Shown in pieces: positions 24,001 through 29,643 of a DNA stretch of 53,537 nt. Numbering within the stretch: the first letter of the stretch is position 1; the number at the start of each line of letters is the position of its first letter. The DNA is from Pyrinomonadaceae bacterium (GTDB lineage: Bacteria; Acidobacteriota; Blastocatellia; Pyrinomonadales; Pyrinomonadaceae): contig JBDTZD010000312.1 in assembly GCA_040005335.1 (NCBI GenBank), positions 1 through 53,537 on the forward strand. The letters run 5' to 3'. The position numbers and the translations under genes are program-made. The notes beneath the pieces were generated by a model. That model saw only the letters and a list, made by a program, of their open reading frames with translations, was not told the DNA's origin and did not search any database.

Positions 24001-24294
24001 ATGTCTGAGATAATTGGTTGGGTGAGTTCGCTCATTCTACTGCTAACTGTTGGCAAGCAGGTTCATAAACAGTGGAAAGATGGAACGAGCGAAGGTGTTT
24101 CCAAGTGGTTATTTTTTGGACAGATTGCCGCTTCTATCGGTTTTCTGGTTTACAGCGTTTTGATTACAAACTGGGTTTTTATCGTCACCAATTCTCTAAT
24201 GGTTATTAACAGTTTAGTGGGTATTGGGATTCTGTTTTATCACCGGCAGCGTGACAATAAGAAGCAATCACAGAAATTAGCTGTCCAAAATTAA
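24001..24294 (+). CDS. SemiSWEET-like 3-TM membrane protein
   Basis: Three TM segments with the layout IIGWVSSLILLLTVGKQVHKQWK...VS...LVYSVL...N. The PQ motif is replaced by KQ. RBS aaggggg. Confidence 0.45.
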   Translation: MSEIIGWVSSLILLLTVGKQVHKQWKDGTSEGVSKWLFFGQIAASIGFLVYSVLITNWVFIVTNSLMVINSLVGIGILFYHRQRDNKKQSQKLAVQN

Positions 24295-24337: not shown

Positions 24338-25696
24338 TTATTTTCCGGTCAAAAGCCCGTAGATTTGCAATCCAAACATTCCCATCACAGCTGTCGTGAC
24401 AAGCGCAAATGTCGCCCACCCCAATATGTTATAAAGCTTGGTGTTCTTTAAATCGCGCATCAAACGCGCATCATTTACTAGCAGCAGAATGAAAAGTAAG
24501 ACAATCGGCAGCAATGCGCCATTTAATATTTGGACAAAAAACAGCAATTTAATTACTGGCACACTCGGAATTAGTGCAACGCCCGCGCCCAAAACGATTA
24601 GCCCGGTAAATAACCGAAAGAAAATCGAAGCGCGGCGAAAATCGAGGTTGACGCCTTTCGGGAAACCGAAAGTTTCGCTGACGGCATAAGCCGTTGCCAG
24701 GGGCAAAACTGCCGCCGCCAGCATTGACGCGCCGAAAAGACCTATGCCAAAAATTATCCGCGCGGTTGCGCCCGCGACGGGTTCGAGGGCTTTGGCGGCA
24801 TCGGATGCGCTTTCAATTTCGGTTTTTCCGATCACGTGCAGAGTTGCCGCCGTTGCAATAATCATTGACATTGACATCAAATTTGAAAAAATTGAGCCGG
24901 CGTAGGCGTCAATTCTTTCATCACCATAATGTTTTCGCGCCGTCCCTTTTTCAACCGTCGAGCTTTGCTGAAAAAGCTGCATGTACGGCGTAATTGTCGT
25001 CCCAATTAACCCGACGAGCATTGTGACATACACCGTATCAGTGTGAATTTTTGGAACGAACCCCATTGCGACTTCGCCCCACACCGGCTTTGCCATAATT
25101 GCCGCCACCGGATATGCCAGGAAAACGAGCGTCATCAGAAGGAAAATCTTCTCCACCTGGGCATACGAGCCGAAAACAACCAGATACCAAACTACTGCTG
25201 CCGCCAAAGGAACAGAAACGTAGCGAGAAATACCAAACAGCTCGAGCGCGGCGCCGATACCGACAAATTCGCTGATGATGAGTCCCCCGTTAGCAATCAA
25301 AATTATTGAGATGGCGAAAATTCCCCAGTTCAATCCAAAACGTTCTCGAATTAAATCAAGCAGCCCTCGTCCCGTCGCTGCCCCCAGACGAGCACACATC
25401 TCTTGCACGACGGCGAGAGAAACCGTAATCAGGAGCATCACCCACAGTAGTTCATAACCGAATTTTGCGCCCGCCGAACTGTACGTGGCAATCCCGCCCG
25501 CATCGTTTCCGGCTGAAGCCGCAACAAGCCCAGGCCCTAAAACCCAGAGCCATCGAAAAATGCCTTGAGGCTGTCTCGGCATTCCGTAAAGCCATAAATC
25601 TCGCCCGCGAATTTGCAGATGCATTGCCTTCCGGCCTATTTGCTTGACGTGCGGGAGAGGCACTTTTTCGAGCGTCTCATTAAGAGATTCTTTCAT
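24338..25696 (-). CDS. Nramp (SLC11) family transporter with non-canonical metal-site motifs
   Basis: GPGLVAASAGNDAGGIATYSSAGAKFGYELLWV has DAGG where canonical Nramp has DPGN. IGTTITPYMQLF stands where canonical has GATVMPH. Confidence 0.85.
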   Translation of the reverse strand: MKESLNETLEKVPLPHVKQIGRKAMHLQIRGRDLWLYGMPRQPQGIFRWLWVLGPGLVAASAGNDAGGIATYSSAGAKFGYELLWVMLLITVSLAVVQEMCARLGAATGRGLLDLIRERFGLNWGIFAISIILIANGGLIISEFVGIGAALELFGISRYVSVPLAAAVVWYLVVFGSYAQVEKIFLLMTLVFLAYPVAAIMAKPVWGEVAMGFVPKIHTDTVYVTMLVGLIGTTITPYMQLFQQSSTVEKGTARKHYGDERIDAYAGSIFSNLMSMSMIIATAATLHVIGKTEIESASDAAKALEPVAGATARIIFGIGLFGASMLAAAVLPLATAYAVSETFGFPKGVNLDFRRASIFFRLFTGLIVLGAGVALIPSVPVIKLLFFVQILNGALLPIVLLFILLLVNDARLMRDLKNTKLYNILGWATFALVTTAVMGMFGLQIYGLLTGK

Positions 25697-25728
25697 AAAT
25701 ATTGAAAGCCAAAAGATTTAGGTGACGT

Positions 25729-26979
25729 TTAGCTAAAAACTCGTGGTGCTTGATCGCGCCAGTTGCGTGGGGCGACATTTGAGACAGCTGCGTCAATGGT
25801 TAATACGCCGAGCAGCTTGTTTGTTTCATCAACAACCGGCATCGCTGCTAAATGCGAATCAATTAACCGAAACGAAGCTGCCCGAGCTTCACCCATAGGC
25901 GACAAAACTGAGACGAATTCATCCATAATGTCCGCAACTTTATCGGTTGGTTCCGCCGTTACAATCCGTCGCAACGAAATAACGCCGCGCAAAACCCGTG
26001 AGACTCCGGTTTCGACGACATAAATAAAATAAACAAAATTCGGGTTTTTAAGCGGTTCGGTCAAAAATTGTCGCGCTTCATCAACCGTCAAATCGAGCGG
26101 AAGTGTAACAACATCATTAGTCATTACGCTGCCGACAGTGCCTTCGGGAAAACGCAGCAGTTCGAGAATTTTTGCGGCGCAATCTTTCGGCAAATTTTCC
26201 AGCGCTTTTTGGGCTTCATCTTCTTTAAGCTGCTTGATAATTTTAGCGCCAGTTTCGGGCGCGAGCAGCGCAAACATTTTCCGACTTTGCTCGTCGTCCA
26301 ATTCTTCAAAAATCTGTAATTGTTTGTCGGACGAAGTCAATTCCAGGACATCTGCTGCCAGCTTGTCCGGCAACAGTACGATTAACTCTGCAGCATGTAA
26401 ATATGGAATTAAATCAATAAATCCGGCAATTTCGCCGGGTGCAAGTTTGGTAATTCGCAGATGATATCCAGCGCCGTTGCGAACAGCATTCGGATCGCCG
26501 CGCAAAAACTCGACAAACTTCCAGTCAAACAAATTTTTTCGGTCAATTCGTCGCCACAGATTAAAACTCAAGCGCCGCAAAATTGCTGCTGTGCTTATGT
26601 CAGCGTGTGACAAAACTATTTGTTCATCGCGTTTCTCAAGCCATAAATCGTTTGCTCTCGTGACGCGCCTATTCTGTAAGTCCAAAATCAGCGCGTCGAG
26701 GACGTCGCGCACCAGCAAAACTTCGCGCGTTAAACTATCATCAGGAAACTCCTTAGCTTCTTTCAAATTTGTAGTTCGAATCTCTTTCTTCCGTAGATCA
26801 ATCAAATTGCTGTTTTTCCAGTCTAAACCGACGAATTTTCGATCATCATTCCAAAATAAAACTTGCTTGATCGGCGGATATTCTCCGTTAAGTAAATCAA
26901 CGGAGAGATCGGCGATCCGAACAGTTTGATTTTGATCATCAACCAGCCGGAAACGCCGGATTTCGGACAGCATCAGCAT
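25729..26979 (-). CDS. Soluble MgtE-like protein (PRC-like N-terminus + MgtE_N + CBS pair, no TM domain)
   Basis: Same architecture and length as 10965..12212: LHAAELIVLLPDKLAADVLELTSSDKQLQIFEELDDEQ..., then a CBS pair ending LTIDAAV. A 32-nt gap separates it from the downstream Nramp gene. Confidence 0.7.
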   Translation of the reverse strand: MLMLSEIRRFRLVDDQNQTVRIADLSVDLLNGEYPPIKQVLFWNDDRKFVGLDWKNSNLIDLRKKEIRTTNLKEAKEFPDDSLTREVLLVRDVLDALILDLQNRRVTRANDLWLEKRDEQIVLSHADISTAAILRRLSFNLWRRIDRKNLFDWKFVEFLRGDPNAVRNGAGYHLRITKLAPGEIAGFIDLIPYLHAAELIVLLPDKLAADVLELTSSDKQLQIFEELDDEQSRKMFALLAPETGAKIIKQLKEDEAQKALENLPKDCAAKILELLRFPEGTVGSVMTNDVVTLPLDLTVDEARQFLTEPLKNPNFVYFIYVVETGVSRVLRGVISLRRIVTAEPTDKVADIMDEFVSVLSPMGEARAASFRLIDSHLAAMPVVDETNKLLGVLTIDAAVSNVAPRNWRDQAPRVFS

Positions 26980-27186
26980 TAATTTAATGTTCCTTGCACG
27001 ATAAAAATACAGCCATCTGATTTGCCAAGTATGTTTATCATTCGCGGGTATCAGATAAGGAGAGAAAACGAATAATAATGACTCAATAATTTAATCTTGT
27101 GATTTATACTATATCTATAACTATTTATTCAATAAACTCAGAAAGATTTCTCTTTCACCGGTATTTATCCACGGTTACCAGATGGC

Positions 27187-27201
27187 GGCACGGCTCTTGC
27201 A
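27187..27201 (+). promoter_or_regulatory. Sigma-54 -24/-12 promoter candidate
   Basis: GGCACGgctcTTGCA matches GG-N10-GC. It ends 69 nt upstream of the ATG at 27271. Confidence 0.65.
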
Positions 27202-27270
27202 ATAGCGTTTTGCGAAACTTATACCAAACTTTGGGAAATACATTTCTAAGAGCAGATAGGGAGAAAAAAT

Positions 27271-27732
27271 ATGGCAGACGCAAATAACGCAATCTCAACC
27301 TTGAACAACTTGATACAAACTTGTAAAGACGGTGAAAACGGATTTAACGAAGCTGCTCAGGGAGTTTCGAGTGCCGACCTAAAAGACGTTTTTATGCGCT
27401 ATTCACAACAGCGTTCGCAATTTGCGGGTGAATTGCAGGAAGCTGTTAGCAAAATTGGCGGCGATCCGGAAACAAGCGGTAGTATTGCAGCATCACTTCA
27501 TCGCGGTTGGATTGATATCAAATCAGTCGTTACGGGTCAAGATGAAGGAGCGATCTTGAGTGAATGCGAACGCGGTGAGGATTCCGCGGTTGAAGCATAC
27601 CAAAACGCCCTTAAAGAGGCTTTACCATCCGAGGTTAACTCAATTGTAGAACGTCAATATACACAGGTTAAAGAGGCGCATGACCGCATTAAAGGCTTGC
27701 GAAACATGAGCAATTCGGCTTCGGGAAGCTAA
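27271..27732 (+). CDS. PA2169-family four-helix-bundle (DUF2383, ferritin-like) protein
   Basis: LNNLIQTCKDGENGFNEAA...CERGEDSAVEAYQNAL. Confidence 0.8.
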   Translation: MADANNAISTLNNLIQTCKDGENGFNEAAQGVSSADLKDVFMRYSQQRSQFAGELQEAVSKIGGDPETSGSIAASLHRGWIDIKSVVTGQDEGAILSECERGEDSAVEAYQNALKEALPSEVNSIVERQYTQVKEAHDRIKGLRNMSNSASGS

Positions 27733-28194: not shown

Positions 28195-29643
28195 TTAAAG
28201 TCCATGCTTTTTCATCATATGGTAGAGACGTGGGCGATAAATCCCGAGCATATTAGCAGCAGCTTGTTTATTGCCGTTGGTGCGGGTGAGTGCTGCCTGC
28301 ACGATTGAGCTTTCAAGTTGCTCAAAAATATCCGTCGAGGACATTTCGGCTGTTGCGTCAGGAGCTTTGCCGACGACAACTTCACCGATTCGCGTCCAGC
28401 TCAAATCTTCCTCACTTTGATTGCTATTAATAATTACCGACTCGAGCATTTCATTAGAAAAGGTTGTTTGTTGCTGCTGCTCAAACGGCAAATCTGAAAT
28501 TTCTATTTGTTCGCCTTTGCAAAGTAAAACGGCGCGTTCGATAATGTTCTGCAATTCGCGGACATTTCCTGGAAACGCATGTGTCACTAACAGCATTTGC
28601 GCTTCGCGCGCGATACCTCGCACTTTGCGCTTGTATTTTTCAGTGTAAATTTGTAAGAAGTGTTCAGCCAGCCGCAGAATGTCGTCGGCGCGTTCACGAA
28701 GCGGCGGAACGCGAATCGTAATTGTATTAATGCGATAAAATAAATCATCCCTTAATAACCCCAATTTAATTGCATCCGCTGGTTCGCGGTTAGTTGCGGT
28801 AATAAGGCGAAAATCAACTTTCTGCGGCTTCTCGCTGCCGACTTTGGTATACATTCTTTCCTGCAAAACGCGAAGTAATTTGGGCTGTAATTCAACCGGC
28901 ATTTCGGCGATTTCGTCGAGCAACAAGCTACCACCATCGGATTGACCAATCAATCCAACTTTCTCTCCGGTCGCGCCGGTAAAGGCGCCGCGGGTGTGCC
29001 CGAATAGCTCACTTTCAATAAGTTCTTTTGGCAGAGCAGCGCAATTGACTTTGATAAACGGTTTTTTTGAGCGCAGTGAATTGTAATGAATTGCATTGGC
29101 AATTAGTTCTTTACCCGTTCCCGATTCACCGATAATCAAAATCGAAGCATCCGATGGCGCAACGCTATCAATAATCTCGTATAAATTTTGCATTGCCTTG
29201 CTACCGCCAACGATTTCTTCGTAGGTTGTGCGCGTTGCAAGCTTACCGCGTAGCTGTTTGACCTCCTGCGAGCGGCCGGAAAGTTGTAAACCACGTTCAA
29301 CTAAAACTACCAAACGATCTAGGTTAATGGGCTTTTCAACAAAATAAAATGCTCCGTGTTTAGTCGCTTCGACCGCTACCTCGACCGCACCGTAACCGGA
29401 AATTACAATCACCTCAGTTTCGGGCAGAATCTCTTTGCTGCGCTGAAGTAATTCCATACCGTCCATGTCTGGAAGGCGCAAATCCGTCAAAATCAGATCC
29501 GGTCGCTCCTCGGCAATCATTTGTAATCCTTCACTACCGAGAGTCGCAGTCAGCACTTCATAACCTTTTGTTTGTAAACTTAACTGCAAAAATCCAAGCG
29601 TATCTAAATCGTCGTCAATTGCTAAAATCTTGTTCTTAGCCAA
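28195..29643 (-). CDS. Sigma-54-dependent response regulator (NtrC family: REC + AAA+ + Fis-type HTH)
   Basis: REC domain DLILTDLRLPDMDG. GESGTGKE Walker A. GAFTGA sigma-54 contact loop. C-terminal NGNKQAAANMLGIYRPRLYHMMKKHGL. No histidine kinase gene nearby. Confidence 0.9.
   Translation of the reverse strand: MAKNKILAIDDDLDTLGFLQLSLQTKGYEVLTATLGSEGLQMIAEERPDLILTDLRLPDMDGMELLQRSKEILPETEVIVISGYGAVEVAVEATKHGAFYFVEKPINLDRLVVLVERGLQLSGRSQEVKQLRGKLATRTTYEEIVGGSKAMQNLYEIIDSVAPSDASILIIGESGTGKELIANAIHYNSLRSKKPFIKVNCAALPKELIESELFGHTRGAFTGATGEKVGLIGQSDGGSLLLDEIAEMPVELQPKLLRVLQERMYTKVGSEKPQKVDFRLITATNREPADAIKLGLLRDDLFYRINTITIRVPPLRERADDILRLAEHFLQIYTEKYKRKVRGIAREAQMLLVTHAFPGNVRELQNIIERAVLLCKGEQIEISDLPFEQQQQTTFSNEMLESVIINSNQSEEDLSWTRIGEVVVGKAPDATAEMSSTDIFEQLESSIVQAALTRTNGNKQAAANMLGIYRPRLYHMMKKHGL

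Follow-up and report, generated by a model that had tools for sequence, protein, structure and literature searches.

An NRMT-type transporter gene adjoins a gene for a pore-less MgtE-like cytoplasmic protein in an uncultured soil acidobacterium

We analyzed a stretch of DNA of 53,537 nucleotides, in the following called the window, from an uncultured Pyrinomonadales-like organism, whose best genome match (L001) was 82% / 89% identical. The locus of interest contains two open reading frames on the minus strand, on which all features described below are located. The 5’-gene encodes a protein of 416 amino acids (25,729–26,979) that resembles the cytoplasmic part of MgtE without its pore and is called the partner here. 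The 3’-gene encodes an Nramp-family transporter of the NRMT type with 452 amino acids (24,338–25,696). The ORF ends place 32 nt between the two genes (25,697–25,728), as had been described in an earlier note that was based on the letters of the sequence. The spacer contains no terminator-like site, which is consistent with co-transcription, and the two genes are most likely co-transcribed. The sequence was found only in DNA metagenomes (soil, root, and biocrust) and in one run of unknown type, and no transcript support for an operon was obtained. An AT-rich leader and promoter region of 291 nt (26,980–27,270) is common to the gene pair and to a divergent DUF2383 gene. No riboswitch in the whole window matched Rfam at the gathering score, and a permissive scan of positions 26,900–27,400 revealed no M-box, even at E ≤ 10. 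M-boxes were also not found in 11 related loci, nor in the Paraeggerthella locus discussed below.

The transporter matched the Pfam family Nramp (PF01566) over its full length, with an E value of 6e-92. The closest solved structure was that of EleNRMT from Eggerthella lenta (7QIA; E 4e-102, 345.6 bits), whereas the scores for the other structures were 108.8 bits (DraNramp), 63 bits (ScaDMT), 50 bits (EcoDMT), 48 bits (NRAT), and 46 bits (DMT1), and the matches to MntH structures had E values of about 1e-30. The identity to the Paraeggerthella orthologue of EleNRMT was 43%. The signature of NRMTs has been defined as DxxG on α-1 and TxxA/T on α-6 (Ramanadane 2022, PMC8806188). In the translation of the window gene, the first half is represented by the TM1 metal-site motif DAGG (residues 65–68; 25,493–25,504), and translation and alignment identified the second half, in its TxxT variant, as the TM6 metal-site motif GTTITPY (residues 232–238; 24,983–25,003). 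DAGG was found in 75 aligned paired transporters, including that of the window, and GTT[ILV]TP[YF] was the majority form of TM6 among the paired relatives. The TM6 counterparts are GTTIAPW in EleNRMT and GATVMPH in DraNramp. In the alignment with DraNramp, GATVMPHVIYLH of the window transporter lined up with GTTITPYMQLFQ, and thus the Met and both His residues of DraNramp are replaced; the two TM6b His positions are occupied by Tyr238 and Gln243. The two motifs and the loss of these three residues had already been read from the sequence in the earlier note, and the translation and the alignment confirmed them.

The transporter shares with EleNRMT the fold, the DAGG of TM1, the Thr at the Ala position of TM6, the Asp, and the absence of His from TM6b, as well as the Gln in α-10, which is required for transport by EleNRMT. 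The Met position is occupied by Thr in the window and by Ala in EleNRMT, both of which lie inside the published A/T signature. MntH and the canonical NRAMPs (DraNramp, ScaDMT, and EcoDMT) and plant NRAT belong to the same Pfam family and have the same LeuT fold. An identity as MntH was rejected because the DPGN / AxxM(PH) signature is absent and the score with the NCBIfam MntH model NF001923 was 157 bits, below the cutoff of 430. An identity as NRAT was also rejected, as its signature DxxN-AxxT does not match the motifs of the window. Judged by the DxxG-TxxA/T signature and the bit scores of the structure matches, with EleNRMT as the best, the transporter is a member of the NRMT clade, in agreement with the previous assignment.

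In the partner, Pfam detected an MgtE_N domain at residues 180–279 (E 6e-16) and two CBS domains at residues 282–400. Based on Pfam, Foldseek, and charge, the helical MgtE_N domain extends over residues 176–280 (26,140–26,454) and has a pI of 4.6; Pfam and the alignment to MgtE place the CBS pair at residues 281–400 (25,780–26,139). The pore domain PF01769 had no Pfam match in the partner, which stops 16 residues past CBS2, and the TIGR00400 mgtE model was covered only from position 26 to 251 of its 450 positions, with 90 bits compared to a cutoff of 233. The AlphaFold model of the partner had a pLDDT of 84.7, and its Foldseek TM-score to the MgtE cytosolic domain was 0.85, normalized to the target. 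T. thermophilus MgtE (2YVX/2YVY/5X9G) also combines an MgtE_N superhelix with a CBS pair, at 26–28% identity, but the partner lacks the plug helix and the transmembrane pore and carries an extra tandem PRC-like domain at its N-terminus.

The N-terminal domain (residues 1 to about 165; 26,485–26,979) was delimited using models, Foldseek, and homologues. The AlphaFold models showed two beta-rich modules, and the model of residues 1–170 had a pLDDT of 82.6. The best PDB matches of this model in Foldseek were the PRC-barrel proteins CdpB1/B2 (8qzo), the H subunit of the reaction centre, and RimM; the probabilities of the PRC-barrel matches were 0.96–1.0, with weak E values of 4e-3 to 0.2 and a large rmsd for the superposition of both domains. 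The first 175–180 residues of the partner had no Pfam match to PRC (PF05239), even at E ≤ 10, and therefore the PRC assignment is supported through homologues and fold. Among the homologous N-domains, those of P0256 and P0253 matched PF05239 with E values of 1.9e-7 and 2.6e-6, respectively; the partner of locus L081 matched weakly, and for that of L088 a PRC domain was listed, unmarked. The PRC-like N-terminus that had been proposed in the earlier note is thus supported indirectly, by homologues and model fold and not by a Pfam match of its own. The domain is nearly confined to this architecture; a search of 1.84 billion representatives yielded 311 clusters at E ≤ 1e-3. Some true MgtE channels, e.g., P0256, likewise have a tandem PRC-like N-domain.

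Residues 1–396 of the partner aligned with the cytoplasmic part of P0256, a full-length PRC-MgtE channel, with an E value of 3e-37. Judged by sequence comparison, the partner is thus the entire cytoplasmic portion of an MgtE with PRC domains, from which the pore has been removed. Pfam, Foldseek, and this alignment together substantiate the earlier description as the cytosolic part of MgtE without a pore, to which we add that the match to PRC-bearing full-length channels comprises the whole partner.

Conservation of the adjacency in relatives had been named beforehand as a check, and it was borne out. In 78 of 78 partner-seeded genome loci with room, which span Acidobacteriota, Chloroflexota, Verrucomicrobiota, and Abditibacteriaceae, the transporter gene was located directly downstream on the same strand, with 0–124 nt between the tblastn matches of the two proteins. 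When metagenome loci with room were seeded with the transporter, a partner was found within 3 kb in 65 of 76 cases, upstream and on the same strand in 63. The divergent partners P0253, P0250, P0248, P0264, and P0245 as well as the Paraeggerthella partner each adjoin an Nramp-like gene, and the Paraeggerthella orthologue, which is close to EleNRMT, has a long-form partner 4 nt upstream. No nearby partner was present at the other 11 of the 76 NRMT loci, showing that the partner is not obligatory. For ten of these loci the best upstream ORF was scanned, and none encoded a divergent partner; they comprised CinA (3), a second Nramp gene (2), a formiminotransferase, MIP, a TPR protein, an M20 peptidase, and a TnpB-like gene. 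The eleventh locus, L151, was left out; its main upstream ORF is on the opposite strand.

These 11 loci and the ability of NRMTs to function without a partner, both in vivo (PMC4072509) and in liposomes (PMC8806188), might suggest that the two genes are merely neighbors without a functional link. However, adjacency on the same strand across several phyla is far beyond chance, and the module was kept even in locus L088, in which the gene order is reversed, so that a missing link is extremely improbable.

The pairing itself has been described before. Shin et al. (2014, PMC4072509) reported that most NrmT genes adjoin a gene for an MgtE cytoplasmic domain and proposed feedback regulation. In the pairs treated there, the C. 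acetobutylicum Ca_c0685 operon and Acp2976/Acp2977 of A. capsulatum, the transporter gene is directly downstream of the MgtE-cytoplasmic-domain gene, as in the window. The A. capsulatum pair, compared by its description only, is likewise acidobacterial and lacks an M-box. In contrast, the Clostridium operons are described as M-box controlled with the partner split into two genes, whereas the window has no M-box and one partner gene. The partner is called a ‘small protein’ in that account, which in its accessible part mentions neither a PRC-like N-domain nor a C-terminal tail, both features of the window partner. Of the split regulator that the earlier note had envisaged, the adjacency therefore stands, but the novelty does not, as both the pairing and a ‘cytoplasmic feedback regulator’ were published in 2014. 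The locus is a typical two-gene NrmT/NRMT module, a further and unremarkable case that comes from an uncultured acidobacterium of soil. The literature already covers the signature of the transporter as well as the pairing of the genes, and the observation adds little to it.

We consider a carrier of the NRMT type together with a trans-acting, MgtE-derived cytoplasmic regulator, as in a typical NrmT/NRMT module, to be the best joint explanation of the locus, with a probability of roughly 60%. From the observed identities, architecture, and synteny we infer, for the pair in the window, a physical interaction, gating, a sensed ligand, and a substrate. The metal site of the carrier, formed by Asp65, Gly68, Thr233, and Thr236, is the enlarged NRMT site without Met. 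By homology to EleNRMT, which transports Mg2+ and Mn2+ (PMC8806188), the carrier would import Mg2+ and/or Mn2+ without proton coupling; NRMT-specific residues confer H+-independent Mg uptake. Most likely, the soluble partner binds to the carrier from the cytoplasmic side and tunes its activity to a cytoplasmic signal. The outcome would be post-translational feedback for an otherwise unregulated uniporter, as is built into MgtE, CorA, and CNNM/CorC.

A different role, raised as an alternative by Shin et al. (PMC4072509), is that of a cytoplasmic metal chaperone or buffer, which would take the ion from the carrier instead of gating it. The acidity of the MgtE_N and CBS parts (pI about 4.6) would fit this role. 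We regard it as very unlikely, as acidic residues have not been conserved at the specific ligand positions and the homologous domain in MgtE is a regulator; moreover, Mg2+ is millimolar in the cytoplasm, so that a chaperone for Mg2+ would have no obvious use.

The regulator reading raises the question of which signal the partner senses. The earlier note had proposed Mg2+, and the ligand residues weakened this proposal. We used a T. thermophilus MgtE ligand numbering that was checked against the ligand lists of ChMgtE and CbMgtE; with a single offset applied throughout, each position that we take to be a ligand falls on an acidic residue of TtMgtE. Of the ten mapped positions (sites Mg2–Mg7), only D210, E242, and E364 are still acidic in the partner, whereas T243, K246, N314, R366, H376, A397, and S400 replace D92, D95, E166, E216, D226, D247, and D250 of MgtE, respectively. 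The Mg5/Mg4 ligands D226/D247 thus correspond to His376 and Ala397, of which the former is nearly invariant and the latter invariant or nearly so across homologues. The ATP contacts Y170, R187, D188, N203, and F227 of MgtE correspond to F318, R337, R338, D353, and L377; the Arg alone is retained, and the remaining four side-chain contacts are replaced, including the ATP-stacking Phe227 by Leu377. What this analysis adds is that, in the large soil clade to which the window belongs, most Mg2+ ligands of MgtE are replaced, as are the ATP-contact residues with a single exception. In contrast, the Paraeggerthella partner keeps MgtE-like acidic residues (DD) and an acidic plug-like segment. Where an acidic-type partner had a neighboring TM6 motif that could be read, this motif was TxxA in two cases (L081 and L088) and TxxT in two (L086 and L087); there is thus no clean link between partner type and TM6 variant, and this idea was dropped.

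The pair could instead serve primarily for uptake of Mn2+, or another transition metal, with a partner that senses Mn2+ or a further ligand and not Mg2+. According to PMC4072509, Acp2977 of A. capsulatum, the sole tested acidobacterial NrmT and likewise without an M-box, behaved mainly as a Mn2+ importer: rescue was complete for a Mn2+-transport mutant but weak for a Mg2+ mutant. The Mn2+ transport by EleNRMT, the missing M-boxes in the window and the 11 related loci, the His376 in place of the Mg5-site Asp, and the loss of most other Mg2+ ligands point in the same direction. However, Met, which favors transition metals, is missing from the metal site, and the Thr on which EleNRMT critically depends for Mg2+ is kept (T224; T224A abolishes Mg2+ transport, PMC8806188). 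A single His is also weak evidence for Mn2+ sensing. We therefore treat primary Mn2+ uptake as possible but doubtful, while the substrate of the NRMT carrier in the preferred reading could be Mg2+ or Mn2+.

The sole published co-expression test, reported by Shin et al. (2014, PMC4072509), was performed with the A. capsulatum partner and left the rescue unchanged. The window locus points to a question that has stood since 2014, namely what the MgtE-like partner does for a carrier that is able to work alone. The question can now be put more sharply: the partner is a whole PRC-MgtE cytoplasmic region, the known Mg2+ and ATP ligands are not conserved in the soil clade, and its conserved tail is a candidate contact. 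Because a close orthologue of EleNRMT has a partner and the EleNRMT structure is solved, a structural test of the complex looks within reach.

The C-terminal tail, NVAPRNWRDQAPRVFS in the translation (25,732–25,779), is short, conserved, basic, and aromatic, and would stand where the plug helix is found in MgtE. Residues A403, P404, W407, A411, and F415 were invariant in 51 homologues, and the ending ...P..W....P[RK][VI]F[SAT] recurred in most of the diverse partner representatives. At the C-terminus of the Paraeggerthella partner, a hydrophobic stretch some 30 residues long is found instead of the PRVFS tail of the window partner. The recurrence of the tail (…APxxWRxQAPRVFS) in most sampled partners is a further addition of this analysis, and the tail may be a docking motif that contacts the carrier. 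A bolder and rather unlikely extension is that the PRC-MgtE_N-CBS unit is a regulatory module portable across unrelated transporters and that the module of the soil clade, having lost the MgtE sites for Mg2+ and ATP (His376, Ala397, and Leu377), senses a ligand other than Mg2+, e.g., Mn2+, and docks via the tail. MgtE pores carry the unit in cis, and NRMT carriers are accompanied by it in trans; in a single MAG, it is part of a fusion with a transporter of the AI-2E family.

The transporter gene (24338-25696 (-), 452 aa) lies downstream of the partner gene (25729-26979 (-), 416 aa), separated from it by 32 nt. No terminator-like site was found in this gap, and the two genes are probably co-transcribed. 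Neither an M-box nor any other Rfam family was detected in the 291-nt leader, and an M-box was likewise absent from 11 related loci. The sequence was found in soil, root, and biocrust metagenomes; no usable RNA data were found.

The transporter is a full-length match to the Nramp family (Pfam PF01566, E 6e-92). TM1 carries the motif DAGG (residues 65-68), and TM6 carries GTTITPY (residues 232-238). GATVMPHVIYLH aligns with GTTITPYMQLFQ of DraNramp, so that neither the Met nor either of the two His found in proton-coupled NRAMPs is retained. Among all solved structures, EleNRMT, an Nramp-related Mg2+ transporter (NRMT) from Eggerthella lenta (7QIA), was the top match by far (E 4e-102, 345.6 bits), compared with 108.8 bits for DraNramp MntH and 44-63 bits for ScaDMT, EcoDMT, rice NRAT, and human DMT1/NRAMP1. 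With the NCBIfam MntH model, the score was 157 bits, far below the cutoff of 430. The published binding-site signature is DxxG-TxxA/T for the NRMT clade and DxxN-AxxT for NRAT (Ramanadane et al. 2022, PMC8806188), and DAGG together with TTIT represents the Thr variant of the former. Also, the alpha-10 Gln required for EleNRMT transport (PMC8806188) is present (QILNG, from residue 389). In 78 related loci, DAGG was nearly always accompanied by GTT[ILV]TP[YF], and now and then by GTTISPF; therefore, the Thr variant is the norm of the soil clade and no oddity of this gene. Signature and structure scores showed that the transporter was correctly classified as an NRMT in the earlier note.

The partner contains MgtE_N (residues 180-279) and two CBS domains (residues 282-400), and a domain profile search revealed no pore domain. 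It covers only positions 26-251 of the 450 positions of the mgtE model, i.e. the cytoplasmic part. Modelled with AlphaFold on the basis of 51 homologues (pLDDT 84.7), the partner could be superposed on the cytosolic domain of Thermus thermophilus MgtE (TtMgtE) over about 245 residues, with a target-normalised TM-score of 0.85; in this model, the first ~165 residues form two beta-rich modules. For this N-domain, the window sequence itself gave no Pfam match. PF05239 (PRC-barrel) was matched by the homologous N-domains of the related proteins P0256 (1.9e-7) and P0253 (2.6e-6) and of the partner at locus L088, and when residues 1-170 were modelled separately (pLDDT 82.6), the top Foldseek matches were all PRC-barrel proteins (CdpB1/B2, reaction-centre H subunit, RimM), albeit with weak E-values. 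The label "PRC-like" is thus reasonable. Together, the ORF, motif, and domain results confirmed every element of the initial observation.

When 1.84 billion representative proteins were searched with the N-domain by HMMER, only 311 clusters were obtained, and nearly all complete proteins therein had 395-470 aa, the partner's own architecture. One informative exception is P0256 (593 aa), a true MgtE channel that combines a partner-type N-domain with MgtE_N, CBS, and a PF01769 pore. Partner residues 1-396 align with P0256 (E 3e-37); therefore, the partner is a PRC-bearing MgtE reduced to its whole cytoplasmic region, with neither plug helix nor pore. P0256 shows that the partner descends from, or has common ancestry with, a PRC-bearing MgtE subfamily, and the classification as a pore-less PRC-MgtE_N-CBS fragment of MgtE is correct. 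The P0256 gene (L090:334-2115) adjoins TrkA-type genes, with no Nramp gene there.

The earlier note had proposed a survey of gene adjacency across genomes. A partner-seeded search of species-representative genomes yielded 80 loci, mostly from Pyrinomonadaceae, but also from Anaerolineales, Thermomicrobiales, Verrucomicrobiota, and Abditibacteriaceae; the closest was a Pyrinomonadales MAG (82% identity for the partner, 89% for the transporter). Two loci were at contig edges. The 78 loci whose contigs extended far enough all have an NRMT gene directly 3' of the partner gene on the same strand, with the tblastn matches 0-124 nt apart. Five far more divergent partners also adjoin an Nramp-like gene, one of them in reversed order. 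In a transporter-seeded search, 76 metagenome loci were long enough to be assessed, and the partner was found upstream on the same strand in 63, downstream in two, and not within 3 kb in 11. The partner-transporter synteny is very strong. The Paraeggerthella orthologue of EleNRMT, 90% identical to it, is preceded at a distance of 4 nt by a 450-aa PRC-MgtE_N-CBS gene, the product of which aligns nearly full-length with the window partner (27% identity, E 2e-36). Therefore, the long-form partner is the general NRMT partner and no window-specific feature.

Gene order varies: at L088:1695-4284 an Nramp-like gene stands ahead of the partner gene, and at L121:3001-5685 the partner gene is downstream of the NRMT gene on the opposite strand. 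In 10 of the 11 partner-less loci, the best upstream ORF scanned was an unrelated gene. An upstream cinA was present at L119, L139, and L148, and an IS605 OrfB/TnpB-like gene at L165; all four carry Ser where the Met would be (GTTLSPY or GTTISPY). L124 and L167 contain tandem Nramp-like genes with NDPGG and GTTITPW motifs. Partner-less loci may belong to NRMT subclades of their own that are regulated differently.

For the regulatory Mg2+ sites of MgtE, the ligands were mapped onto the partner via the ChMgtE and CbMgtE ligand lists and the T. thermophilus numbering; as a cross-check, every T. thermophilus position used is acidic in TtMgtE under a single consistent offset. The ligands E59, D91, D92, D95, E166, D214, E216, D226, D247, and D250 correspond to partner D210, E242, T243, K246, N314, E364, R366, H376, A397, and S400, respectively, so that only 3 of 10 positions are acidic. 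Across the clade, Ala397 and His376 show little or no variation. The equivalent of Asp95, Lys246 (26242-26244), is Asp in 39 of 45 other aligned partners, whereas the six closest aligned relatives have Lys, Asn, Gln, or Arg there; this is a further local loss of an acidic ligand. The ATP contacts Y170, R187, D188, N203, and F227 correspond to F318, R337, R338, D353, and L377, with one of five (the Arg) retained; in MgtE, F227A abolished ATP binding. Unlike the window partner, the Paraeggerthella partner and more distant representatives kept MgtE-like acidic residues. This split did not follow the Ala/Thr variant of the transporter. Judged from these residues, the MgtE ligand picture does not simply carry over, and the loss of Mg2+ and ATP ligands argues against assuming a simple detached Mg2+ sensor, as the earlier note had suggested.

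In MgtE, CorA, and CNNM/CorC, the brakes are cytoplasmic domains. NRMT-specific residues confer H+-independent uptake. A potential-driven uniporter of an abundant cation needs a brake, NRMT has none of its own, and the strictly syntenic, probably co-transcribed, pore-less MgtE region is the obvious candidate. We regard the identities of both proteins as settled; the brake mechanism we infer.

The pairing and the identities behind the proposed split system are real, but the proposal is not new. It repeats an observation and a hypothesis of Shin et al. 2014 (PMC4072509), who named the clade NrmT, found most of its genes beside one for an MgtE cytoplasmic domain, and proposed feedback regulation, and is thus a rediscovery; systems of this kind were described in 2014 and 2022. 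The pair from Acidobacterium capsulatum, also without an M-box, was tested in the 2014 study: the transporter fully rescued an Mn2+-uptake mutant and only partially an Mg2+-uptake mutant, and co-expression of the partner changed nothing (PMC4072509). EleNRMT carries Mg2+ and Mn2+, and its description does not discuss a partner (PMC8806188). In the soil clade of the window pair, the physiological substrate may be either Mg2+ or Mn2+. In the literature searched, no later paper characterising an NRMT partner was found.

The 16-residue C-terminal tail of the partner, NVAPRNWRDQAPRVFS, occupies the place of the plug helix, and most of the diverse partners likewise end in the pattern ...P..W....P[RK][VI]F[SAT]-COOH. 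We propose this tail as a candidate docking element. The Paraeggerthella partner (L081:2644-3996) has kept an MgtE-like acidic "DD...D..EED" segment after CBS2 and ends, in place of the ...APRVFS tail, with some 30 hydrophobic residues, VTAAKIVGGIIGAVLFLVLYTMALFQIIGY. This end looks like a membrane anchor, and, if anchored, this partner may not be soluble.

P0177 (L089:403-2556; NCBI MAG GCA_038317525.1) is a complete 717-aa ORF encoding a fusion with an AI-2E-family transporter (PF01594, residues 85-402), followed by a partner-type PRC-like N-domain (443-613) and MgtE_N (622-708), with no CBS pair. An EncFtn-like gene is adjacent, and no Nramp gene is nearby. The fusion suggests that a third family of transporters can make use of the PRC-like and MgtE_N module, but this single example may be an artefact of assembly or of a frameshift.

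The flanking genes, which include an acyltransferase and DUF4129/DUF4350 proteins, are unrelated to the pair. A DUF2383 gene (27271-27732 (+), PA2169-like four-helix bundle) is divergent from the partner gene and shares with it the 291-nt AT-rich intergenic region; directly past it lies a sigma-54-dependent response regulator (28195-29643 (-)), and no link of either gene to the pair was seen. Convergent with the transporter gene, 24001-24294 (+) encodes a 97-aa three-helix membrane protein that resembles a SemiSWEET/MtN3 unit, with a PF03083 score (E 2.7e-4, 21.3 bits) slightly below the cutoff of 23.7.
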